A stretch of DNA of 64,000 nt, taken from Bacteroidales bacterium (lineage in GTDB: Bacteria; Bacteroidota; Bacteroidia; Bacteroidales; P3). The notes beneath the pieces were generated by a model. That model ran no database searches. It was not told the DNA's origin and was given only the letters and a program-made list of their open reading frames with translations. The stretch lies in contig JAFWYO010000137.1 in the NCBI GenBank assembly GCA_017517715.1, forward strand, positions 6,018 through 70,017, in the 5' to 3' direction. This document shows positions 9,130-29,229 of this stretch, in pieces. How positions within the stretch are numbered: the stretch's first letter is position 1; the number at the start of each line of letters is the position of its first letter. Made by a program: the position numbers and the translations under genes.

Positions 9130-10395
9130 ATGAAGGATATTTTTGAAAGAATCAAAGAGTCGACCGGCGGTCCGCTGGGACAGTATCGCAAGCTGGCCGA
9201 TGGCTATTTCTATTTTCCGAAGCTCGAGGGCGAGCTGGGTCCCGAAATGACGTTCAACGGCAAGAAGGTGCTGAACTGGAGCCTGAACAACTACCTGGGT
9301 CTGGCCAACAACCCTGAGGTGCGCGCCGCCGACGAGGAGGGTGCCCGCCGCTGGGGCCTTGCCTATCCGATGGGAGCCCGTATGATGAGCGGCCATACCG
9401 CTCTGCACGAGGAGGTTGAGTCGATGCTGTGCCAGTACACGCACAAGAAGTACGGCTACCTGCTCAACTTCGGCTATCAGGGTCAGATTAGCATCCTCGA
9501 CACCATCGTCAGCCTGCGCGACGTCATCGTCTACGACAGTGAGGCCCACGCCTGCCTGATCGACGGTTTCCGCGTGACGGGTGCCAAGCGTTTCAAATAC
9601 CAGCACAACGACATCGAGAGCCTGCGCAAGCAGCTGACCCAGGCCACGGCGCTGGCCGAGAAGCAGGGCGGCGGCATCCTGGTGGCCACCGAGGGTGTGT
9701 ACGGTATGGAAGGCGACCTGGGCGCGCTGGACAAAATCGTTGCCCTGAAGAAAGAGTTCAACTTCCGCATCCTGATCGACGATGCCCACGGTATGGGCGT
9801 TATGGGTCCCGAAGGCCGCGGCACGCACACGCACTTCAACTGCGAGGACGAGATCGACCTCTATTTCTGCGCCTTCGCCAAGACGATGGCCATCATCGGC
9901 GGCTTCATCGGCTGCAACGACGAGGACATCATCACCTACCTGCGCTTCAATATGCGTTCGCAGATCTATGCCAAGAGCCTGCCGATGCCTATCGTTTGGG
10001 GCGTCAAGCGCCGTCTGGAAATCATCAACCAGCATCCCGAATACCGCGAGAAGCTGTGGGAGCTGTCGACCTACCTGCAGAAGTCGCTCCAGGCCGAGGG
10101 CCTGAACACGGGCGTCACCGAAAGCCCCATCACGCCGGTCTTCTTCCCGGGCGACGTGAACCAGGGCACCAACGTGGTTGTCGACCTGCGCGAAAACTAC
10201 GGCATATTCTGCTCCATCGTGGTCTATCCCGTGGTGCCGAAGGGCCAGATTATGCTGCGTATCATCCCCACGGCGGTCCACACTATGGAACACGCCAACC
10301 GCACCATCGAGGTGTTCCGCGAGGTGAAGAAAAAACTCGACGAAGGCGTCTACAACAAGCCGATGCCCGATATGCATATTATCAAACACAAATAA
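9130..10395 (+). CDS. Alpha-oxoamine synthase family PLP enzyme; candidate cysteate-C-fatty acyltransferase (CapnB/SulA-like) or serine palmitoyltransferase-like
   Basis: 421 aa with AONS/SPT family architecture. The PLP-lysine context is CAFAKTMAIIGGFIG and there is an HGMG motif. It sits next to a cysteate-synthase-like gene and an SDR. Confidence 0.75.
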   Translation: MKDIFERIKESTGGPLGQYRKLADGYFYFPKLEGELGPEMTFNGKKVLNWSLNNYLGLANNPEVRAADEEGARRWGLAYPMGARMMSGHTALHEEVESMLCQYTHKKYGYLLNFGYQGQISILDTIVSLRDVIVYDSEAHACLIDGFRVTGAKRFKYQHNDIESLRKQLTQATALAEKQGGGILVATEGVYGMEGDLGALDKIVALKKEFNFRILIDDAHGMGVMGPEGRGTHTHFNCEDEIDLYFCAFAKTMAIIGGFIGCNDEDIITYLRFNMRSQIYAKSLPMPIVWGVKRRLEIINQHPEYREKLWELSTYLQKSLQAEGLNTGVTESPITPVFFPGDVNQGTNVVVDLRENYGIFCSIVVYPVVPKGQIMLRIIPTAVHTMEHANRTIEVFREVKKKLDEGVYNKPMPDMHIIKHK

Positions 10396-10396
10396 T

Positions 10397-10543
10397 TAGG
10401 AACAAGAGAGTTGAAGGTTTTTTGGCTTTCAACTCTCATTATATTTTAGGAACAAGAAAGCTGAAGTTTTTCAACTTTCAACTATTAATTAGAGACAAGA
10501 GAACTGAGGTATTTTCAACTTTCAACTCTCAACTTTCAACTTT
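10397..10543 (+). repeat. Three tandem stem-loop units of about 45-50 bp, ending in a TCAACT(C/T) heptamer run
   Basis: The units start at TAGGAACAAGAGAG (10397), TAGGAACAAGAAAG (10447) and TAGAGACAAGAGAA (10490). Each forms a GAGAGTTGAAGG / CTTTCAACTCTC-type hairpin. Confidence 0.75.
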
Positions 10544-11767
10544 ATGAAATACCAGCTCAGATGCAAGAAATGTGGCAAGGTCATCGCCGACTTTGCCACT
10601 TGGTTTCGTCAGGACCAGAAGTGCGACTGCGGCAGCGGATATGCCGAGGTGGAATACCTGGAGCCGCTGCACGCCCCCGCCGAAAAGCCTGCAACCGACT
10701 CGTACCAAGACTATTACTTCGATATGCTGCCCATCGCCGACCGCCAGAATGTGGTCAGTTTTGGTGAGGGCCTGATTCCCATCGAAAGGTGGGACAACCT
10801 GGAAGCATACGCCAAAGGTAAAGGCGTTGATTGCAAGGTGTTTGTCTATCGTAACGACCTGAACCGCGGCAGCGGCTCGTTCAAGGATATCAGCGCGGCG
10901 CTGGCCGCCACGGTGCTGAAGGAGAATGGCGTCAAGGAATACTGCCTGGCCTCGACGGGCAACTCCGGCGTGGCTTTTGCCACCTACAGCGCCAAGGCTG
11001 GCATCCGCTTCACCGAGTTTGCGCCCAACTGCATCGACCCCGCCACGGTCGAGGCCATCCGCAAGGTGGGCCAGCCCGTGGTCGTCTCGGCCGGCGGCTA
11101 CGGCGCCGCCAAGGAGGAGGCTGCCAACTATCACAAAACCAACAATGTACTGATTAGTGGCGGCAACACCGACCCGCTGCGCATCGAGTCGAAGCGTCTG
11201 GTGGTGTTCGAGTGTCTGCGCCAGATGGGCCAGCTGCCCACGGTCTATATGCAGGCTGTGGCCGGCGGCACGTCGCCCCTGGCTTTCGAGAAGGGCTTCC
11301 GCGACCTGCAGGCTATGGCTGGCGACAAGGCTGGCGACTACCAGCTGCCGCGTATGCTGCTGGTGCAGCAGGACGAGTGCGACCCGATGGTGACGGCCTG
11401 GGAGAAGGCCACCGCTGCCGGGTTCCCCGCAGGGTGGGAGCAGCAGTACGAGGCCAAGAAGGACCTCAAGACCCGCATCGGCATCCTGACGGCTGCCAAT
11501 CCGGGCAACTATCCGCTGGTGGCTCCGCTGGTTAAGCGTTCGGGTGGTACCTTCATCCGCGTCAAGGAGGCCGAGCTGCCCCGCTACGGCAAGGAGATGA
11601 AGGCCAGCCGCGGAGTGCTGATGGGCCCCGCCTCTATGGTGTGCTATGCCGGATTCTTCCAAGCTGTGGACTGCGGCGAGATCAAGAGCGGCGACGTCGT
11701 GCTGCTCAACACCGGCGAGGGCTGCGACCGCGCCCAGTGGTTCAGGGAGTTGGTGGAAGAGAATTAG
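10544..11767 (+). CDS. Threonine-synthase-like PLP enzyme; candidate cysteate synthase (CapnA-like)
   Basis: 407 aa with an N-terminal zinc-ribbon-like CKKCG...CDCG. The PLP-lysine motif is GSGSFKDISAAL, followed by ASTGNSG. It lies between the AOS and SDR genes. Confidence 0.65.
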   Translation: MKYQLRCKKCGKVIADFATWFRQDQKCDCGSGYAEVEYLEPLHAPAEKPATDSYQDYYFDMLPIADRQNVVSFGEGLIPIERWDNLEAYAKGKGVDCKVFVYRNDLNRGSGSFKDISAALAATVLKENGVKEYCLASTGNSGVAFATYSAKAGIRFTEFAPNCIDPATVEAIRKVGQPVVVSAGGYGAAKEEAANYHKTNNVLISGGNTDPLRIESKRLVVFECLRQMGQLPTVYMQAVAGGTSPLAFEKGFRDLQAMAGDKAGDYQLPRMLLVQQDECDPMVTAWEKATAAGFPAGWEQQYEAKKDLKTRIGILTAANPGNYPLVAPLVKRSGGTFIRVKEAELPRYGKEMKASRGVLMGPASMVCYAGFFQAVDCGEIKSGDVVLLNTGEGCDRAQWFRELVEEN

Positions 11768-11801
11768 TCAAGACTAGTATGACTAGTTAAACTAGAATAA
11801 A

Positions 11802-12602
11802 ATGAAGAAATTCGAAAACAAAACTGTTTGGATTACAGGCTCATCGTCGGGCATTGGCGAGGCTACGGCCTATCGTTTTGCCCAGGAGGGTGCAAAGGTG
11901 ATTGTCACCGCCCTTGAGGCCGACCTGCTCGAAAAGGTAGTGGCCCGCTGCAAGGAGCTCGGCGCTCCTGATGCGGCGGCGCTGCCCTTCGACCTGTCGG
12001 ACAGCGACGGGCTCGACGCCCTTGCCGAGCAGGCGTGGAACCGTTTTGGCGGCATCGACATCCTGTACAACAATGCCGGCATCAGCCAGCGCGGCACCAC
12101 CGTCGAGACCGAGATGCGCGTCATCCGCAAGGTGATGGACATCGACTATTTCGCCCCCGTAATCCTGACCAAGAATATCCTGCCGCGGATGATAGAACGG
12201 GGTGGGGGACAGCTGGTTGTGACCACCAGCATCGCGGGTCGTTTCGGCTTCCCGCTGCGGTGCGCCTACAGCTCGGCCAAGCACGCCCTGTATGGCTTTT
12301 TCGAGACCGTCCAGGCCGAGACCTACGACCAGAACATCCGCGTCACCATCGTCTGTCCAGGCCGCGTGCAGACCAACATTTCGAAGTACGCCCTCGAAAA
12401 GGACGGCCGCCAGCACGGCAAGATGGATGCCGGCCAGGCCGGTGGCGTCACGCCGCAAAAGGCTGCCGACAAAATCGTCAAGGCTGTCTATAAGAAGAAA
12501 CGCGAAGTCCTTGTGGGCCGCTACGAGCTGCTGATGGCCTACATCAAGCAGTTCTTCCCCGGTTTGGCCGCACGTCTTGCAAGAAAGATTAAACCAATGT
12601 AA
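11802..12602 (+). CDS. Short-chain dehydrogenase/reductase; candidate 3-dehydrocapnine reductase (CapnC-like)
   Basis: Has the TGSSSGIGEATA cofactor motif, NNAG, and the YSSAKHAL catalytic YxxxK. Length is 266 aa. Confidence 0.7.
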   Translation: MKKFENKTVWITGSSSGIGEATAYRFAQEGAKVIVTALEADLLEKVVARCKELGAPDAAALPFDLSDSDGLDALAEQAWNRFGGIDILYNNAGISQRGTTVETEMRVIRKVMDIDYFAPVILTKNILPRMIERGGGQLVVTTSIAGRFGFPLRCAYSSAKHALYGFFETVQAETYDQNIRVTIVCPGRVQTNISKYALEKDGRQHGKMDAGQAGGVTPQKAADKIVKAVYKKKREVLVGRYELLMAYIKQFFPGLAARLARKIKPM

Positions 12603-22130: not shown

Positions 22131-22703
22131 ATGAAAAAAACATTCTTTTTCGCTCTCGTAGCACTTCTGACTCTTGGTATGGCTTCCTGCTCGAAGGAAA
22201 ACGTTGAACCCGCCAACCAGAACATCGACCTCAACGCAAACGCTCTGAAAGCAAACAAGAGCAATAATTTCGCCAGCACCCAGTGGGTGTGCAATGTTGA
22301 TACGGTTCTCGACCTTGGTGCTATCTACGGCATCAACGACCCGAATATTGACCTGACTATTCCTGTCAACACCACTTTCACCCTCGATTTCAACGCCACT
22401 GGCGACACCCTGGCTCTCTCGATCAGCGCTTTTGACAGCTCGGAAGTTGTCTTCGTTACCGGCGACGGCGAGACTATGACTATCGACTTTGCTTTCAACT
22501 TTGATCAGGCTACCAACATCGGCACGATGGTCGGAACCGTGAACGACATCACCGGCGAGCCCGTTACCATCACCCTCGAGTTTGTGTATGACGTTATTAC
22601 TAACACTATGACAGTGACTTCGCCCCTGGAAGGCGACCCGACCGACCCGGTCAGCACTACTTTCCTCGGTTTCTTTGAAACTCTGGTTTTCAGCCTCGTC
22701 TAA
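22131..22703 (+). CDS. Hypothetical lipoprotein
   Basis: Lipobox LTLGMASCSKEN. A TATGTTTG box at 22038-22045 lies upstream. Confidence 0.6.
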   Translation: MKKTFFFALVALLTLGMASCSKENVEPANQNIDLNANALKANKSNNFASTQWVCNVDTVLDLGAIYGINDPNIDLTIPVNTTFTLDFNATGDTLALSISAFDSSEVVFVTGDGETMTIDFAFNFDQATNIGTMVGTVNDITGEPVTITLEFVYDVITNTMTVTSPLEGDPTDPVSTTFLGFFETLVFSLV

Positions 22704-22906
22704 CTTAACTTATAAAACTTTTCATAACGTAATAGTGTTAATGAATCATTGGGGAGGAGTCCGTGAAGGTCTCCTCCTTTTTTTTGAAACTTTCGTCGAG
22801 GGGAAAGTTTTTCTTTACTTTTAACATACTGATAAATAATTTTTTGGAGGGTGTGGCGTTATTGAATGAAAATTGAGTGAAAAAAACGTAAATAAAGATA
22901 ATTAAG

Positions 22907-23974
22907 ATGGAAGATTTTTTTGTTTCCGGTATACAGCAAGTCGGCGTGGGATGTGTTGATTTCCAGGCTGCTTGGCGCTGGTATATCGAAATGTTCCAGA
23001 TGGATGTGCGCATACTGGAGGACGACACGGTGGCCGAGCGTATGCTGCCTTATACGGGCGGCAAGGCCCAGAAGCGCCACGCCTGTATAGCTGTCAACCT
23101 TCAGGGTGGCGGCGGTTTCGAGATTTGGCAGTATAGCGAACGCAAGCCGCAGCCAGTGGGTTTTGACATCCAGGTTGGCGACTTGGGTATTTTTGCCGCC
23201 AAAATCAAAAGCCGCGATGTCGAGTCTTTCCATAGAGAACTTGCGGCCAAGTACGACCGTGTGGGACCTGTGTGCCAGTCGCCTGACGGACGCCGTTGTT
23301 TTGTGGTCGAGGACCCTTGGGGCAATTGGTTCCAGGTGGTCGAGGACGGGACGGTCTTCATCGACCGCGGACAGCTGAGCGGCGGCATTGTGGGCGCGAC
23401 GACCGGATGTAGCGACATCGACCGCACTATGCCGCTGTATCGCGACGTGTTGGGATACGACCGCGTGGTGTACGATGTTACGGGCACATTCGACGATTTG
23501 GCCTATATGCGCGGCGGCGACGGGCGTTTCCGTCGTGTGCTGCTGGCTGGCAGCAAGAAGCGCAAGGGCGCTTTTGTGCCGCTGTTTGGCGAGAGCACCA
23601 TCGAGTTGGTCCAGTCGCTAGACCGCCAGCCCCGCAAGATATACGAAGGCCGCCAGTGGGGCGACCCGGGTTTTATCCAGATTTGCTTCGATGTGACCAA
23701 TATGCGTGCGCTCGAGAAGCATTGCAACGCTTTGGGCTTCCCGTTCACGGTGGACAGCTGCAAGGGCGACGAGCACTTCGATATGGGCGAGGCCAGTGGC
23801 CACTTCACGTATGTCGAGGATCCCGACGGCACGCTGATAGAACTGGTCGAAGCGCACAAGCTGACAGTGCTGAAGCGTCCGCACATTTACATAGATATGC
23901 TGAAGCGTAACCGCGAGAAGGCTTTCCCGAAGCTGTTTTTCAGGCTTATGGCTTTGAACAAGGTGAAACTTTAA
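22907..23974 (+). CDS. VOC (glyoxalase/dioxygenase) superfamily protein, multi-domain
   Basis: 355 aa. GIQQVGVGCVDFQAAWRWY and the repeated beta-alpha-beta-beta-beta-like modules are typical of VOC proteins. It ends 21 nt before the first Hdr-like gene. Confidence 0.6.
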   Translation: MEDFFVSGIQQVGVGCVDFQAAWRWYIEMFQMDVRILEDDTVAERMLPYTGGKAQKRHACIAVNLQGGGGFEIWQYSERKPQPVGFDIQVGDLGIFAAKIKSRDVESFHRELAAKYDRVGPVCQSPDGRRCFVVEDPWGNWFQVVEDGTVFIDRGQLSGGIVGATTGCSDIDRTMPLYRDVLGYDRVVYDVTGTFDDLAYMRGGDGRFRRVLLAGSKKRKGAFVPLFGESTIELVQSLDRQPRKIYEGRQWGDPGFIQICFDVTNMRALEKHCNALGFPFTVDSCKGDEHFDMGEASGHFTYVEDPDGTLIELVEAHKLTVLKRPHIYIDMLKRNREKAFPKLFFRLMALNKVKL

Positions 23975-23995
23975 AACGAGAGAAACACTATTTTT

Positions 23996-24601
23996 ATGAG
24001 TAACTTGGTCGATTATATAAAGCAGGACGAGCGGGCCGACGAGGCTCTGAAAGCCTGTATGAACTGCGGAATGTGCACGGCGGTCTGTCCTGCGGCAGAA
24101 TTCTACGACTACGATCCGCGCCGCATCTGCGATATCGTCCAGCGCGGCGACGAGACGGAAATAGAGAACCTGCTCAAGGGCGACACGATATGGTTCTGTG
24201 GCCAGTGTATGTCGTGCAAGACGCGCTGTCCGCGCGGCAATGTGCCTGGCGAGCTGATCAGCGTTTTGCGTCGCGCCTCGGAGGAGCTTGGCTATTTTGC
24301 CGAGAGCGAAAAGGGCCGACAGCAGAAACAGCTGATGAACTCTATCGGCAGCAACATTCTGGAGATAGGCTATTGTGTGCATCCCGACCGGGTGGATCCC
24401 GACTATCACCCCGAGCAGGGCCCGATATGGGAATGGTACAAGGAAAACATCGAGGAGATAGCCCCGAAGCTGGGTGCCAACTATCACGGCAACGGTCCGG
24501 GAGCCTTGCGCAACATACCCGAAGAGGACTTGGACGAGGTGCGCCGCATTTTTGAGGTTACGGGAGGTATGGAATTGAGGGAAAAAGTGCTGGAGAATTG
24601 A
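23996..24601 (+). CDS. HdrC-like 4Fe-4S dicluster protein
   Basis: Two CxxCxxCxxxCP motifs: CMNCGMCTAVCP and CGQCMSCKTRCP. Confidence 0.75.
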   Translation: MSNLVDYIKQDERADEALKACMNCGMCTAVCPAAEFYDYDPRRICDIVQRGDETEIENLLKGDTIWFCGQCMSCKTRCPRGNVPGELISVLRRASEELGYFAESEKGRQQKQLMNSIGSNILEIGYCVHPDRVDPDYHPEQGPIWEWYKENIEEIAPKLGANYHGNGPGALRNIPEEDLDEVRRIFEVTGGMELREKVLEN

Positions 24602-24654
24602 GAATGGGGGAAGGGCGATAATTAGTTGCAAATCTTTGATTACACAAGGAATAA

Positions 24655-25020
24655 ATGAAAAAATTCGGATTCGTTATTTCGCAGGGCCGTCAGCTCAATT
24701 TCGACGAGATGCACAACGAGAAGGTGGAAAAACTGCTCGAACTGGTGCCATCGTACAGGTTGTGTATCGGTTGCGGCGGTTGTACGGCGGCCTGCTCGGC
24801 GGCCGGTTTTACCGACTATAATATCCGCAAGATACACACTTCGTTCTTCAGAGCCCAGTATGAAGGTCTGGACGAGCAGTTGAAGCGGTGTATGCTGTGT
24901 GGCAAGTGCCTGCTGGTATGTCCGCGAGGAGTGAACACGCGGTCGCTGATAATCAATATGAGAAGGGTGCTTGCCAATGTGCAGCCCAACACTTTTGTAA
25001 GAAAGGGGGCGGAAGAATGA
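24655..25020 (+). CDS. Small HdrC-like 4Fe-4S ferredoxin-domain protein
   Basis: Cluster motifs CIGCGGCTAAC and CMLCGKCLLVCP. Length is 121 aa. Confidence 0.7.
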   Translation: MKKFGFVISQGRQLNFDEMHNEKVEKLLELVPSYRLCIGCGGCTAACSAAGFTDYNIRKIHTSFFRAQYEGLDEQLKRCMLCGKCLLVCPRGVNTRSLIINMRRVLANVQPNTFVRKGAEE

Positions 25021-26897
25021 AGTGGCCGTTTGTCGTTTTTGCTATTTTGTACTGGCTCGGCGTAGTGGGCCTGATGGTTAAGTGGGTCTTTTTCGAGCCG
25101 CTGTTTTCGGTCTTCGTGCTGCCTTTTATGCTGGGTGTCATTCTGTTGCTGTTCTTCTCGATTGTCAAATATTGGCGTTGGATCAACAGTTTCGACAAGC
25201 TGCAGCGCGCCATAATACGCAAGAATATCTGGAGCTGGCGTTTCCTGCCTGCCATTTGGGAGGCGTTCCGCGAAGGCTTGCTGCACTGGCGCATCACGAA
25301 AAAGAATCTTTTGCTGGGATATATGCACCGCAGCCTTGCTTTCGGCTGGTTTCTGCTTATCGTTGTCGGTGCTGTCCAGTCCCGTCTGGCGATTCCCGAC
25401 GGACACCCTATGTGGGTTGCCATTTTCTTCAATTATTTTGAGCAGGATGTGGATATTTCGGCATTCAAACACGCTGTGCTTTTTGCCAACGTGATGGATG
25501 CTTTGCTGATATATGTGCTTAGCGGTCTTTTCCTGGCTATGTTCAAGAAGGTGTGGTCGCGCCCGATGGGTATGAAGCGCACCACGCGACATACGCTGAT
25601 GGACCGCGTGGCCAAGATGGCCCTTTGGTGCATCTTCCCCTTCAGGCTTCTTTCGGAAGGGGTTACGTCGTCTCTGTATGGCAATGGCGGTTTTATGATC
25701 AAGCCTCTGGGCGATCTGATCTATACGATAGGACTGTCCAACCAGGCTTTTGAATACACCTGCTGGACGCTTTACAGTGTTGCCCTGGGCACATTCTTCT
25801 GCCTGATGCCGTTCTCGCGCTATATGCATATCTTTACCGAGATTTTCCTGATTTATTTCCGCCAGTTGGGTGTGCACGACAGCGACAAGAAAACGGGCTA
25901 CACGATGTTCGAACTCAGTGCCTGCTCGCGTTGCGGAATCTGTATCGACGGCTGTCCGATGAACAAGGAACTGGGCATTGTGAATATGCAGGGCGTTTAT
26001 ATGTTGCAGTCTATCAGGAATCTGGAACTGCAGAAGAATGCCGAGCCGATAGCTGAAAACTGCCTGATGTGCGACCGTTGTGTTGCCGATTGCCCTGTCA
26101 ATCTGGACCTTTCGGTCATACGCCGTCAGGTGCGCATCAATAACAAAAAGGATATAGACAGCAAGGGTGGCTATGGCTATCTGCGTGATGTCCAGCCGTT
26201 CAACTCGATAGGCCGTGTTGCCTATTTTGGCGGATGTATGTCGCATCTGACGCCGGGCATCACCAAATCGATGGAGACGATTTTCAATGCTGTCGGTCAG
26301 AAATACTGGTATATGGACCGGGACGAGACTATCTGTTGCGGTCGCCCGCTACTGCAGCAGGGCTTCGAAAACCAGGCCTTTGAACTGCGGCGCAAGAACA
26401 CGGAGCTCATTGTCAACAGCAAGGCGACAATGCTAGTCACTTCGTGCCCAATCTGTTATCAGTCGTTCAAGAAGGAGTACAAGCTGTCGATTCCGGTGGT
26501 GCACCACACGGAGTATATCAATATGCTGATAGAGAGCGGCCGGCTGAAGCTGCGCAAGGACGACCGCAAAGTGACCTACCACGACCCGTGCGAACTGGGA
26601 AGGGGATGCGGCATATACGACGAGCCGCGCGACATCCTGAAGGCGACCACAACGCTGCTCAAAACCAAGAATGAACGTGAACACAGCCTGTGCTGTGGTT
26701 TCAATCTGGGCAATCCGCTGTTGGACATCGAACAGCAGACCGAGATTCGCAACGCATCGCGCGAAAACCTGTTGGCACCGGAACCGGACTTGATAGCAAC
26801 AGCCTGTCCGATGTGCAAAAAGGCCTTTATGCGTGCCGACAATGTGCCGGTTAAGGATATAGCCGAAATTGTGGCCGAGAATATTATAAAAAGTTGA
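25017..26897 (+). CDS. Membrane-anchored HdrD/DsrK-like Fe-S protein (polytopic N-terminal domain, 2x[4Fe-4S], two CCG domains)
   Basis: I chose the ATG at 25017, which forms an ATGA overlap with the upstream stop. The N-terminal hydrophobic helices are followed by CSRCGICIDGCP and CLMCDRCVADCP. The CCG domains read CCGRP...CPICY and CCGFNLG...CPMCK. Confidence 0.75.
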   Translation: MKWPFVVFAILYWLGVVGLMVKWVFFEPLFSVFVLPFMLGVILLLFFSIVKYWRWINSFDKLQRAIIRKNIWSWRFLPAIWEAFREGLLHWRITKKNLLLGYMHRSLAFGWFLLIVVGAVQSRLAIPDGHPMWVAIFFNYFEQDVDISAFKHAVLFANVMDALLIYVLSGLFLAMFKKVWSRPMGMKRTTRHTLMDRVAKMALWCIFPFRLLSEGVTSSLYGNGGFMIKPLGDLIYTIGLSNQAFEYTCWTLYSVALGTFFCLMPFSRYMHIFTEIFLIYFRQLGVHDSDKKTGYTMFELSACSRCGICIDGCPMNKELGIVNMQGVYMLQSIRNLELQKNAEPIAENCLMCDRCVADCPVNLDLSVIRRQVRINNKKDIDSKGGYGYLRDVQPFNSIGRVAYFGGCMSHLTPGITKSMETIFNAVGQKYWYMDRDETICCGRPLLQQGFENQAFELRRKNTELIVNSKATMLVTSCPICYQSFKKEYKLSIPVVHHTEYINMLIESGRLKLRKDDRKVTYHDPCELGRGCGIYDEPRDILKATTTLLKTKNEREHSLCCGFNLGNPLLDIEQQTEIRNASRENLLAPEPDLIATACPMCKKAFMRADNVPVKDIAEIVAENIIKS

Positions 26898-26933
26898 AAA
26901 ACTGAGGTTTAATCCGGAATATTAGAATTGTTT

Positions 26934-27995
26934 ATGGAAAAACGTTTTTGGAACGAGTATCAAAAAGAGATTGCCGACGACCATTTCTTCTATGAGCGGA
27001 GCTGCATCAGGCAGACTTTCTTTCCTGGTTCGGAGGCTGCTTTCCTGCGCATCCTGCGCGACGAACTGGGCAAGGATATCTGCGACAACCCACACCAGCA
27101 CACGTGTACGGGAATCGGCTACCACAGCGATGTGGTTCCTTTTGAGACAACAATGACGGTGGTGGCGCGCCTGTTCTCGCTGATGACGGAGTGCGGATAC
27201 GAGAACTATGTGCCTTCGTGCGTCACTTCGTTTGGTGTTTTTTCGGAGATGATAGAAAAGTGGGAAAACGAGCCTGAGCTGCTCGCAAAAGCCCAGCAAT
27301 ATCTCTGGGAGGCCACAAAACGCGAATTCAAAATACCAAAGAATATCGTGCATCCGTCGGATGTCATCTACAAATTCCGGTTCGACCTGAAGCCGAAAAT
27401 GAAATATCAGCTGGTGAACCGTTTCACCGGCAAGCCTTTGCGCGTTGTGGAGCATATTGGCTGCCATTATGCCAAGATTTTCCCTGAGCGTGGCATCGGC
27501 AAGGCTGAGTTTCCCTACGTGCTGGCAGGAATGATCGAGGCGTGGGGCGGCGAGGTTGTGGATTATCCCGAACGGCGCCATTGCTGCGGGTTTGGATTCA
27601 GGCAGTATCTGGTGCAGGAAAACCGCGGCTATTCTATTGCCAATACGAAAAAGAAGTTCCAGTCAATGGAGCCCTTCGAGCCCGACTTCATACTTACCAA
27701 TTGCCCGGGATGCGCTATGTTTATGGACAAATGGCAGTATACCATTGCTGAAATGGAACACAAGACTTTTGACAAACAAGGCTATGGCATTCCGGTGCTG
27801 ACATACGAGGAGCTGACCGGATTGTTGCTGGGCTACGACCCTTGGCAGCTGGGACTTCAGCTGCACCAGGTGCAGAGCGAGCAGTTGCTCAACAAAATTG
27901 GCATCGCCTATAATCCCGACGAGAAATATAAGGGCGTTTCGGGCCGTTTGCTGCCCCGTCCTGCCCGTCCCGAATGCCTCAAAGTCGAATCGTGA
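26934..27995 (+). CDS. HdrB-like CCG-domain protein
   Basis: The C-terminal CCG domain is canonical (HIGCHYAK ... RRHCCGFGF ... NCPGCAMF). The N-terminal copy is degenerate. I preferred the ATG at 26934 over the TTG at 26928. Confidence 0.7.
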   Translation: MEKRFWNEYQKEIADDHFFYERSCIRQTFFPGSEAAFLRILRDELGKDICDNPHQHTCTGIGYHSDVVPFETTMTVVARLFSLMTECGYENYVPSCVTSFGVFSEMIEKWENEPELLAKAQQYLWEATKREFKIPKNIVHPSDVIYKFRFDLKPKMKYQLVNRFTGKPLRVVEHIGCHYAKIFPERGIGKAEFPYVLAGMIEAWGGEVVDYPERRHCCGFGFRQYLVQENRGYSIANTKKKFQSMEPFEPDFILTNCPGCAMFMDKWQYTIAEMEHKTFDKQGYGIPVLTYEELTGLLLGYDPWQLGLQLHQVQSEQLLNKIGIAYNPDEKYKGVSGRLLPRPARPECLKVES

Positions 27996-28041
27996 CAATA
28001 TATATAATTCATTCTTTCTTTAATCGAATAAAATCATAAAA

Positions 28042-29049
28042 ATGAAATCAATATCAATCATTGGAGCCGGTCCTGCCGGTATCGAGGCTGCCTCGGTGCT
28101 TGCCAAACAGGGAATGCCGGTGAATCTTTTTGAAAAATCTTCATCGCCTTTGAAAAATATTGCCGACAAGGCTTTTCTGTTCCCTAATTTTGCTGCGGCG
28201 AGCGACATTGTTGACTTGATGAACAAAAAGCTGCTGAATCAGAACATCACACTTCATCACGATACTGATATCGTCAAGATGCAGCGCGAAGGGGAGGCGT
28301 GGAAAATCGTCGACGGCAAGGGTAATGCATACTATAGCGATTACGTGCTTATGGCCACCGGATACACTCCTTTCGATGCCCACCGCAAGGAGGAGTTGGG
28401 CTATGGTATTTACAATGGCATAGTGACTTCGCTCGAGATGGAGAAGATGATTCGCTACAATCAGATTGTCAATTCGCTAGGCGAGAAACCGAAACGTGTA
28501 GTATTCTTGCAGTGTGTAGGTTCGCGCGATGAAAAGTCGGGCAATCACTATTGCTCCAAGGTCTGCTGTGTTACTGCCGTGAAACAGGCCATCGAGCTGA
28601 AACGCCAGTTGCCTGATACGGAAGCCTATATATTCTATATGGATCTTCGTATGTGGGGCCAGCATTTTGAGGAGATGTACCGTGAGTCGCAGCAGAAATA
28701 TGGTGTTCGGTATGTTCGTGGACGTATTTCGGAGGCTTCGGGCACTTTCGATGGAAGGGTGCAAGTAAAGGCAGAAGACACGTTGATGGGTTTGCCTCTT
28801 AAAATGACCACAGACCTGCTTGTGCTGATGGTGGGTATGGAGGCGTCGGAAGGTACCAAGTGCCTCGCCAAATCGTGCGGGATATGTGGCGAATACGGCT
28901 TCGCAAAGTCTGTCGACCCGCATCTGGGCGACTGTTTGACAGAGCAGAAAGGCCTGTTCGTTTGCGGCGCCTGCAAACGCCCGATGTCGATAAACGATGC
29001 CGTAAACGACGGACGTGCAGCCGCGGTGGCCATAATGGAATCGGAGTAA
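28042..29049 (+). CDS. HdrA-like FAD-dependent oxidoreductase (short form)
   Basis: IIGAGPAGIEAA dinucleotide fold, plus the HdrA hallmark CVGSRDEKSGNHYCSKVCC. Confidence 0.75.
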   Translation: MKSISIIGAGPAGIEAASVLAKQGMPVNLFEKSSSPLKNIADKAFLFPNFAAASDIVDLMNKKLLNQNITLHHDTDIVKMQREGEAWKIVDGKGNAYYSDYVLMATGYTPFDAHRKEELGYGIYNGIVTSLEMEKMIRYNQIVNSLGEKPKRVVFLQCVGSRDEKSGNHYCSKVCCVTAVKQAIELKRQLPDTEAYIFYMDLRMWGQHFEEMYRESQQKYGVRYVRGRISEASGTFDGRVQVKAEDTLMGLPLKMTTDLLVLMVGMEASEGTKCLAKSCGICGEYGFAKSVDPHLGDCLTEQKGLFVCGACKRPMSINDAVNDGRAAAVAIMESE

Positions 29050-29058
29050 GACCTTATC

Positions 29059-29229
29059 CTACCATACCCAGTTGTTTTCGCTATAACTGGCAGCCTGGTT
29101 GAGGTTTTCGTCGGTGTCGCTGGTGAGCAATCCGCAGACAAAAAGGGTAGAGAACACGCTTGCATCGAATCCTCGTTCTACTTTGAATGTCACAACCGTA
29201 AGTGTTGGGGCAATATATTCTTGTTTCAT
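29059..29229 (-). CDS. Candidate small protein (56 aa), unknown function
   Basis: Sequence from the internal ATG is MKQEYIAPTLTVVTFKVERGFDASVFSTLFVCGLLTSDTDENLNQAASYSENNWVW. It starts 17 nt after the mazG stop on the same strand, and its composition looks host-like. Confidence 0.35.
   Translation of the reverse strand: MKQEYIAPTLTVVTFKVERGFDASVFSTLFVCGLLTSDTDENLNQAASYSENNWVW

Follow-up and report, generated by a model that had tools for sequence, protein, structure and literature searches.

The segment at positions 22907-29049 of a 64,000-nucleotide stretch of DNA from an uncultured rumen Bacteroidales bacterium (the window; contig JAFWYO010000137.1 of assembly GCA_017517715.1) encodes six consecutive genes, five of which form the core of an operon specifying proteins related to the subunits of heterodisulfide reductase (Hdr). 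The operon is conserved in its domain composition, its cofactor ligands and its organization, and it is linked to cysteate synthase both by gene neighborhood and by phyletic pattern. We propose, with a probability of about one half, that its products form a quinone-linked complex similar to the sHdr systems, the job of which is most likely the supply of sulfite to cysteate synthase, and hence to sulfonolipids, in strict anaerobes without sulfate-derived sulfite. The source genome is a metagenome-assembled genome (MAG) that is 90% complete, and all negative results reported below for this genome carry that limit.

Organization and domain architecture of the operon

Profile searches with the Pfam and NCBIfam models assign the six open reading frames (ORFs) of the cluster, which follow each other in the order VOC-C1-C2-ED-B-A, to the families given below together with the hairpin that precedes them:

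22752-22790, + strand: hairpin resembling a terminator (GGAGGAG...CTCCTCC, then a run of T; read directly in the sequence), which ends a lipoprotein gene and forms the upstream boundary of the operon
22907-23974, + strand: VOC, two-domain vicinal-oxygen-chelate (glyoxalase-fold) protein, 355 residues; two matches to Pfam Glyoxalase
23996-24601, + strand: C1, HdrC-like protein with two [4Fe-4S] motifs, 201 residues; full-length matches to NCBIfam HdrC models, 88-91 bits
24655-25020, + strand: C2, dicluster ferredoxin, 121 residues; Pfam Fer4 families
25017-26897, + strand: ED, single chain with a membrane domain, two [4Fe-4S] motifs and two CCG domains, 626 residues; two Pfam CCG matches (76 bits) and Fer4
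26928-27995, + strand: B, HdrB-like protein, 355 residues; full-length match to NCBIfam HdrB (141 bits; 7-304 of the 304 profile positions)
28042-29049, + strand: A, short HdrA-like flavoprotein, 335 residues; HdrA models, up to 220 bits

From VOC to A the successive genes are separated by 21, 53, -4, 30 and 46 nucleotides, the negative value being an ATGA overlap of the C2 stop with the ED start. The coordinates and domains bear out the original prediction, made from the sequence alone, of an Hdr-like cluster in a non-methanogen with five consecutive same-strand genes and a VOC gene immediately upstream. The profile matches agree likewise with its description of a membrane-anchored HdrD-like subunit accompanied by soluble A-, B- and C-like subunits, and the motifs that it quoted are present in the translations, with the cysteines of the iron-sulfur (Fe-S) motifs conserved across the relatives.

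Conservation of individual residues was scored over 59-74 orthologues per protein. The largest subunit, ED, joins an N-terminal domain that is polytopic by hydropathy to a dicluster domain and two CCG domains. The NarI-like heme-b assignment of its membrane domain is based on motifs and conserved histidines only, there being no match to Pfam NarI in this region; H90, H104, H192 and H271 are conserved in 99-100% of the orthologues, and these four residues would be sufficient for two bis-histidine hemes b. The eight cysteines of the dicluster domain are invariant or nearly so among the orthologues, and both 5-cysteine CCG motifs are complete and conserved. Among the NCBIfam models, ED matches TfrB (111 bits) and LdhH (105 bits) best, with GlpC at 63 bits, and its best sequence match in the PDB is the ETF:menaquinone oxidoreductase (EMO) of M. 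smegmatis (PDB: 9OJN_A; 71 bits over residues 302-604). ED has the single-chain three-domain architecture of the EMO type, comprising heme-b membrane, two-[4Fe-4S] and non-cubane-cluster domains. It is best described as an EMO/HdrDE-like membrane subunit, which would provide the link to the quinone pool.

No protein of the cluster is better conserved than the HdrB-like subunit B, which is likely to be the catalytic one: its identity amounts to 75-95% among the rumen loci and to 58-82% over the order as a whole. B matches the HdrB chains of the PDB with up to 102 bits. Its translation probably begins at the ATG at 26934, as the orthologues begin with MxKRxWNEY. The original prediction had recognized one canonical and one degenerate CCG domain in this protein. 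The C-terminal motif is indeed complete and conserved among the orthologues, but the N-terminal site, with three of the five cysteines (C26, C60 and C98), is strictly conserved in its altered form. Since the replacements T61 and S101, along with H66, are themselves conserved across the order, this site is a variant rather than a decayed version of the motif.

The flavoprotein A retains the GxGxxG motif that binds flavin adenine dinucleotide (FAD), and C158, C171, C175 and C176 are invariant. Its residues 1-331 align end to end with residues 1-336 of the sHdrA of Hyphomicrobium denitrificans (PDB: 6TJR; 180 bits). On this alignment the FAD-binding motif and all four cluster cysteines are kept, which answers the concern, raised in the original prediction, that an HdrA-like protein might prove to lack them. 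The signature reported there, CVGSRD followed by YCSKVCC, is also present, albeit with a spacing of x6 instead of x8. Against the methanogen HdrA, only the core halves of A can be aligned (residues 2-56 and 102-331), and neither ferredoxin nor MvhD domains are found. More than 5,500 close relatives of A were recovered, mostly from Bacteroidales metagenome bins. In C1 both CX2CX2CX3C motifs are kept in 66-67 of 67 sequences, with C45 and C127 invariant, and the eight cysteines of C2 are invariant in 74 sequences; C1 may act as the electron wire between B and A, and C2 as the one between the flavoprotein A and the membrane subunit ED.

The VOC protein, for which an AlphaFold2 model was available (mean predicted local distance difference test score 90.7), finds its best PDB folds in GLOD4, the two-domain maize glyoxalase I, PcpA and the Bacillus subtilis protein 3OAJ, at template-modeling scores of 0.5-0.67 and 12-16% identity, a likeness that extends to two-domain VOC metalloenzymes in general only. 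A predicted complex of B with VOC received a score of 0.00, which amounts to no verdict, and nothing is drawn from it.

Phyletic distribution and gene order

The distribution of the operon was studied in two sets of genomes, namely 76 related loci retrieved with the fused ED protein, which come from rumen, hindgut, termite gut and digesters and with few exceptions bear the label of MAGs of uncultured Bacteroidales or Bacteroidota, and an evenly drawn order-wide sample of 401 Bacteroidales species, in which presence of the operon was scored from the HdrB-like homologue B only. A B homologue is found in 140 of the 401 species and in 100 of 237 genera, closed genomes included. The original prediction had considered the combination of subunits unusual; the mixture itself is real, but it is not a local oddity, belonging instead to a conserved operon present in about a third of the sampled species of the order. 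Literature searches for Hdr-like genes that covered Prevotella, Alistipes and Bacteroides as well as Bacteroidales and Bacteroidetes at large returned no description of it, and Bacteroidota do not appear in the main text of the sHdr survey (PMC11094781).

Most of the 76 related loci share the order VOC-C1-C2-ED-B-A of the window, and in about 55 of them VOC immediately precedes C1. In the order-wide sample the flanks of B were read in 40 genomes and in five second copies, and here a different arrangement prevails: the order C1-B-A-C2-ED, without VOC, is seen at 37 loci from about 33 families. In this arrangement C1 is always the gene immediately before B; C2 invariably precedes ED, including at the loci where these two genes occur alone. 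An orthologue of VOC is missing from four of the five closed genomes that carry the core operon and lies 290 kb away in the fifth. C1-B-A-C2-ED is the ancestral core, and the VOC-first order of the window is a derived one of rumen lineages.

A HisKA_3 kinase paired with a LuxR-type regulator recurs in the neighborhood of the core operon, and so do pyridoxal-phosphate (PLP) enzymes of the threonine-synthase fold. The former pair, comprising a kinase of about 318 residues and a regulator of the LuxR/NarL type, lies directly upstream of the core operon at about 8-10 loci from different families (L086, L090, L101, L102, L110, L112, L113, L116 and others; L numbers denote loci) and is a candidate for a dedicated regulator.

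Link to cysteate synthase

Cysteate synthase acts on phosphoserine and sulfite, and the head group of the sulfonolipids derives from its product, cysteate (PMC13692747). Within the window, a block of three genes with domain families fitting the capnine/sulfobacin pathway is situated 10 kb upstream of the operon:

9130-10395, + strand: capB/CFAT-like; NCBIfam serine palmitoyltransferase/BioF family
10544-11767, + strand: CapA-type cysteate synthase-like; NCBIfam threonine-synthase/cysteate-synthase-like
11802-12602, + strand: SDR/CapC-like; NCBIfam SDR

This block is predicted to produce the capnine or sulfonolipid head group and may be the consumer of the product of the complex. Its CapA-type protein scores 98 bits on the cysteate synthase model TIGR03844, the curated cut-off of which is 325 bits, as would be expected for the separate bacterial type.

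The neighborhood recurs in the related loci. When the ORFs of the 76 loci are clustered, an equivalent set of genes, which encode an alpha-oxoamine synthase, a zinc-ribbon PLP enzyme and an SDR protein, is found beside the cluster in 19-28 loci, depending on the gene, and its placement varies between upstream co-directional, downstream co-directional and convergent. Blocks orthologous to that of the window immediately adjoin the Hdr-like genes in 24-28 of the 76 loci. In all, the CapA-type synthase or the whole capB-capA-capC block adjoins the operon in at least four arrangements; for instance, capB-capA directly precede C1 at one locus (L083), and capA directly follows ED at another (L112). 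In one family (f7) the gene directly after ED codes for a bona fide TIGR03844 cysteate synthase of the methanogen type (443 and 474 bits), which is only 22-23% identical to CapA. Since both the CapA and the TIGR03844 types adjoin it, two non-orthologous cysteate synthases have been recruited to the same operon.

The phyletic patterns extend this link from the neighborhood to the genome level. The CapA-type cysteate synthase, CysH and the siroheme-containing NIR_SIR family were scored in all 401 genomes, and TIGR03844 in 361 of them, over which the cross-tables were made by script. CysH, the 3'-phosphoadenosine-5'-phosphosulfate (PAPS) reductase, was scored as TIGR00434, mostly above the curated cut-off. 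The CapA type is present in 71 of the 401 genomes, CysH in 262 and NIR_SIR in 31. TIGR03844 is found in 90 of the 361 species, in 89 of them above its cut-off, and among 14 control genomes only in Methanosarcina acetivorans. Taken together, a cysteate synthase of either type occurs in 42% of the species (151 genomes). Within these 151 genomes the operon and CysH are complementary, as tabulated here:

CysH absent: 28 genomes with the operon, 10 without
CysH present: 31 genomes with the operon, 82 without (odds ratio 7.4)

As a result, 141 of the 151 genomes have CysH or the operon. Conversely, among the genomes lacking CysH, a cysteate synthase is encoded by 28 of 37 operon carriers (76%) and by only 10 of 86 non-carriers (12%; odds ratio 23.6). 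The sign of the relationship is reversed in genomes without cysteate synthase, where CysH is present in 57 of 66 operon carriers as against 68 of 144 non-carriers. The 28 genomes that combine the operon and a cysteate synthase with absence of CysH are spread over 20 families, and a table restricted to the CapA type and counted by family is still skewed (9/4 versus 6/23; p 0.005, to be taken as indicative only). Six genomes have capA and B on one contig no more than about 16 kb apart, and CysH is absent from all six, while in three others (G071, G101 and G288) capA is instead next to cysH.

The pattern requires both stratification by CysH and inclusion of the second synthase type. A plain co-occurrence of the operon with the CapA type was considered and rejected, as it shows no association (23 of 71 versus 117 of 330). 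Similarly, there is no overall anticorrelation between operon and CysH across the sample, and the operon alone is associated with neither cysteate synthase nor CysH. The original prediction had offered a link to organosulfur metabolism as speculation and a mapping of co-occurrence as a check; the gene neighborhood and the phyletic pattern within Bacteroidales, along with the sulfonolipid genes at 9130-12602, now lend that link support. As a separate observation on the same sample, most Bacteroidales with CysH have no known sulfite-reducing enzyme, given the 31 of 401 genomes with NIR_SIR, and 68 of 361 have CysH but neither cysteate synthase nor the operon.

The genome from which the window derives conforms to this pattern. 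It has a CapA-type cysteate synthase, and searches detected no PF01507 protein (CysH/CysD), no real adenosine-5'-phosphosulfate (APS) kinase, no NIR_SIR and no Sat, the last being undetected also in five genomes of the same genus. Sulfite from sulfate is thus not available here, because CysH/CysD, APS kinase and Sat were not found, and a role of the operon resembling that of an APS or PAPS reductase was set aside for this genome in the absence of CysD, APS kinase and Sat.

Boundaries and expression

The upstream hairpin separates the operon from a gene for a lipoprotein-like product of 190 residues (22131-22703, + strand) that has no family match, and at the 3' end mazG is convergent with the operon. 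An ORF of 56 residues (29059-29229, - strand) lies between mazG and the end of A, and is 46-63% identical in seven close relatives (L001, L002, L003, L006, L007, L009 and L065). The spacer at 22791-22906 contains no match to the strict Bacteroidetes promoter pattern TTTG-N17-23-TAnnTTTG, and the sigma-70 and terminator scans performed at chance level. Assembled contigs of sheep-gut metatranscriptomes cover all six genes at a depth of 2-13, compared to 48-90 over the upstream lipoprotein gene. The ED-B and B-A junctions are bridged by these contigs, and the VOC-C1 and C2-ED junctions are not bridged by at least 31 nucleotides. Co-transcription of VOC with the Hdr-like genes, which had been suggested earlier, is consistent with the 21-nucleotide gap, the lack of a detected terminator in the VOC-C1 interval and the conserved adjacency of the two, although the RNA contigs do not show it directly; VOC itself, however, is an accessory of some lineages that stands outside the conserved core.

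Comparison with characterized systems

The closest parallel is with the sHdr systems. According to PMC11094781, these occur as type I (shdrC1B1AHC2B2) and type II (shdrC1B1AH-B3-etfAB-emo) clusters with a syntenic core as the criterion of membership, and are accompanied by the sulfur transferases TusA and DsrE3. The hosts include Hyphomicrobium denitrificans, Aquifex, Acidithiobacillus, Sulfobacillus and others (PMC11094781; PMC6067878), and sHdr is obligately associated with LbpA, a protein that binds lipoate, and with the genes for its maturation (PMC6067878). The gene emo occurs in the type II clusters, and EMO has been proposed to pass the electrons of sHdr to menaquinone (PMC11094781; bioRxiv 10.64898/2026.08.18.745454). 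The Bacteroidales operon resembles these systems in several respects: the ancestral order C1-B-A-C2 followed by a second CCG module mirrors shdrC1B1A(H)C2B2, the short HdrA has only FAD and one [4Fe-4S] cluster, and an EMO-type route to menaquinone is seen in type II, with sulfite being the proposed product of sHdr. However, it has no sHdrH, no separate B2 or B3 and no EtfAB; the EMO-like ED takes the place of B2/B3 and Etf, combining the second CCG module with a heme-b membrane domain in one chain. Genes for LbpA, lipoate maturation, TusA and DsrE were not found, and the syntenic core of sHdr is not present. Moreover, its carriers are not sulfur lithotrophs but strictly anaerobic fermenters living in gut and rumen, in which the role would be biosynthetic and not dissimilatory. 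We therefore classify the operon as a variant that would work like sHdr and not as a member of that group, because the defining accessory set was not found.

The membrane subunit is closest to the ETF:(methyl)menaquinone oxidoreductase EMO, also termed EtfD, as exemplified by SaEMO of Syntrophus aciditrophicus and MsEMO (PDB: 9OJN). EMO is a single chain with a NarI-like heme-b domain, an HdrC-like dicluster domain and a non-cubane-cluster domain, is close to HdrDE, and uses its non-cubane clusters as the entry point for electrons toward menaquinone (bioRxiv 10.64898/2026.08.18.745454). ED shares this three-domain single-chain form and has MsEMO as its best match of solved structure, though at 71 bits. 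It differs in that it is not next to etfAB, no Etf being found among the operon genes or the recurrent neighbors, its apparent partners being instead A, B, C1 and C2. ED keeps both 5-cysteine motifs, whereas the distal cluster varies in EMOs, and its four histidines would fit two hemes, as against three in SaEMO and the lack of the distal heme in MsEMO.

HdrDE of Methanosarcina and DsrMK(JOP) of sulfate reducers likewise combine a membrane cytochrome b with cytoplasmic Fe-S and CCG domains, connecting the quinone or methanophenazine pool to disulfide chemistry; however, these are two-subunit modules without HdrA, HdrB or HdrC partners, they act on the heterodisulfide of coenzymes M and B (CoM-S-S-CoB) or on the DsrC trisulfide, substrates of methanogenesis and of sulfate respiration, and this genome has no NIR_SIR. 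The methanogenic HdrABC complexes (PDB: 5ODC, 9SFI and others) contain the closest solved relatives of B, C1 and the core of A, and share the CVGSRD...CSxxCC motif. In contrast to these, A has none of the domains on which the reduction of ferredoxin depends (N-terminal, inserted-ferredoxin and C-terminal ferredoxin), the N-terminal motif of B has three of five cysteines, no hydrogenase, formate dehydrogenase or MvhD partner is present, and the host is not a methanogen. QmoABC of sulfate reducers combines HdrA-like flavoproteins with a membrane subunit resembling HdrC/HdrE and connects menaquinol to a sulfite-producing step, the reduction of APS, but it has no CCG or HdrB-type subunit, whereas the operon contains CCG modules, and works with AprAB. 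CysH/CysD, APS kinase and Sat were not found in this genome; no search for AprAB was made.

Proposed function and alternatives

The above comparisons suggest a model in which the six genes, or the five of the core, would specify one membrane-bound redox complex built like sHdr and wired directly to the quinone pool. Sulfane sulfur derived from sulfide would be oxidized to sulfite at B, and the electrons would travel by way of C1 to a dimer of A, the FAD of which might store four of them, as has been proposed for sHdr. From A they could continue through C2 to the Fe-S clusters and the two b hemes of ED, and from there to menaquinone and fumarate reductase, of which the cytochrome b is present in this genome. 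With two hemes in its NarI-like domain, ED may let electrons be drawn outward by the membrane potential, a behavior described for SaEMO that would help a step that is nearly isoenergetic. VOC would be a lineage-specific accessory. More tentatively than the supply of sulfite as such, we suggest that the operon could represent a biosynthetic route from sulfide to sulfite in strict anaerobes that requires neither oxygen nor sulfate activation, and that uses a membrane-anchored sHdr-like complex, a modified non-cubane site at B and potential-assisted reduction of menaquinone to provide sulfite for the sulfonolipids of gut and rumen.

Several points weigh against the supply of sulfite to cysteate synthase by an sHdr-like complex. 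Of the 125 operon carriers in the cross-tables, 66 have no recognized cysteate synthase and 57 of these have CysH, so that supply of sulfite to this enzyme cannot be the sole role. The two-by-two tables from which the odds ratios and Fisher p-values were obtained ignore phylogeny, and as the genomes are related, these values overstate the case. Scoring from B alone is also noisy, given that some genomes have a paralogous C1-B pair. LbpA/GcvH, TusA, DsrE and a YeeE-type importer were found neither in this genome nor among the neighbors of the operon, which leaves the delivery of sulfur to B without an explanation. The original prediction had advised a search for lipoate-binding, DsrE/TusA and sulfite reductase genes elsewhere in the genome, and the GCV_H, TusA, DsrE and NIR_SIR models all returned no match. 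A search of this MAG for MenA (TIGR00751) gave no match, which could mean that menaquinone is scavenged or that the gene falls into the 10% not recovered. For RNA, the data are assembled contigs, in which carry-over of DNA is not excludable and a single transcript not provable. Finally, the chemistry and its favored direction are argued from homology. With regard to sulfur delivery, one rhodanese is encoded elsewhere in this genome. Genes of the BPL_LplA_LipB family neighboring the operon at three loci were considered as a lead to lipoate and dismissed, since they lie on the opposite strand beside rsfS and ftsH and look like housekeeping genes.

The same neighborhoods and the same complementarity with CysH would also be explained if sulfite were supplied reductively, with B, or else ED through its CCG domain, cleaving the S-S bond of thiosulfate or of an S-sulfonate (R-S-SO3-) to a thiol or sulfide and sulfite, formally the reduction of a heterodisulfide, at the expense of menaquinol or a donor at the flavin site. 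This has precedent, as Hdr, HdrDE and DsrK catalyze reductive cleavage of S-S bonds, and CysH itself proceeds through an S-sulfocysteine on the enzyme that is reduced by a dithiol to release sulfite. Yet the potential of thiosulfate cleavage, about -400 mV, is beyond the reach of menaquinol, and the cluster includes no hydrogenase, formate dehydrogenase, Flx or NAD(P)H donor module; a two-electron cleavage would need neither an sHdr-like FAD subunit nor two arms. This genome also has no YeeE-type importer of thiosulfate, and S-sulfonates derived from APS or PAPS are unlikely in view of the sulfate-activation genes found missing here and, for Sat, in its congeners. We accordingly regard the reductive version as rather doubtful. 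A more general thiol/disulfide:menaquinone oxidoreductase, with a persulfide, a protein disulfide or a thiol of low molecular weight as its substrate and a part in redox homeostasis or in a branch of anaerobic respiration, would make the proximity to cysteate synthase indirect, for example through shared regulation of sulfur genes. The presence of the operon in 140 of 401 species, about half of them without cysteate synthase, speaks for it, as do the frequent HisKA_3/LuxR neighbors, which suggest an inducible respiratory or stress function, and the fact that CCG proteins act on many substrates or serve merely as electron entry sites, as in EMO. However, such a function predicts neither the reversal of sign, with CysH in 57 of 66 carriers without cysteate synthase and the opposite in those with it, nor the independent recruitment of two non-orthologous cysteate synthases. 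Furthermore, only 9 of the 125 carriers have neither CysH nor cysteate synthase. On balance, a general oxidoreductase is possible but unlikely.

The reverse activity, that of a siroheme-independent sulfite reductase converting CysH-made sulfite to sulfane sulfur or sulfide, possibly reversibly, is suggested by the excess of CysH (262 of 401) over NIR_SIR (31 of 401) and by the enrichment of CysH among operon carriers without cysteate synthase (57 of 66 versus 68 of 144). This appears improbable, as no complementarity with NIR_SIR is seen (the operon is carried by 14 of the 31 genomes that have NIR_SIR), 148 genomes with CysH and without NIR_SIR lack the operon too (a figure derived from the counts), and electrons flowing inward from menaquinol would presumably have to fight both the redox gap and the membrane potential. 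Moreover, since both CysH and sulfate activation are missing from this genome, it has no sulfite on which such an enzyme could act. A dehydrogenase of hydroxy acids or glycerol-3-phosphate, of the LutABC, GlcDEF or GlpABC kind, to which VOC might contribute D-lactate as a glyoxalase, could be read from the partial matches of ED to LdhH and GlpC (105 and 63 bits) and from the fold of VOC, which is like that of two-domain glyoxalase I. Nevertheless, all these scores fall far short of the family cut-offs, the ancestral operon has no VOC, and no LutB/LutC, GlcD/GlcE or GlpA/GlpB partner is found in the operon or its neighborhood. The original prediction had named membership in the LutA/B or GlpC clades as one challenge to it; B, with 141 bits for HdrB as against 34 for LdhH and 18 for GlpC, falls with neither. 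Given that the inventory of domains and partners opposes it, this alternative is essentially excluded.

The sulfite supply proposed here bears on two wider questions. The sulfonolipids of gut Bacteroidota are immune-active (PMC13692747), and the papers on sulfonolipids that were consulted do not name the source of sulfite for strict anaerobes that live on sulfide. An operon that is found in about a third of the sampled Bacteroidales, and that stands in for PAPS reductase only in the genomes with cysteate synthase, is a concrete candidate for this source. If the proposal is correct, Hdr-like sulfur chemistry would extend from aerobic and lithotrophic sulfur oxidizers to fermentative gut bacteria, and the Hdr core would be wired to the quinone pool in a new way, through an EMO-like subunit without ETF. 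The origin of sulfite for coenzyme M in methanogens and ANME (anaerobic methanotrophic) archaea is an open question (PMC6286981), for which the operon would then offer a model.

Related modules outside the core arrangement

Parts of the operon also occur on their own. C2-ED is found alone at five loci (L033, L051, L057, L066 and L076), and VOC-C1-C2-ED without B or A within 8 kb downstream is seen at five others (L028, L029, L030, L032 and L044); these two forms suggest that C2 and ED make up a self-contained membrane module. The paralogous C1-B pair, in which B is 61-67% identical to that of the operon, occurs without A, C2 and ED at six loci (L092, L093, L094, L117, L121 and L124). Its neighbors include DUF134, small proteins resembling NifX/Nitro_FeMo-Co, a PLP enzyme of cysteine/methionine metabolism and thioredoxin, and the pair appears to be a distinct Hdr-like module with a connection to sulfur. 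This genome has just one further CCG protein, of 254 residues and with two CCG domains (contig C116, 7881-8546, - strand), which is LutA-like as far as its size suggests. Beyond the Bacteroidota, the closest relative of B with a readable context (P0145, 40% identity) is encoded on a metagenome contig (L079; segment 3851-5104, - strand) in a canonical hdrB-hdrA arrangement, the long HdrA being fused to MvhD. Beside this hdrA, on the other strand, a gene shares 44% identity with the TIGR03844-type cysteate synthase of L119; the contig may derive from a methanogen.

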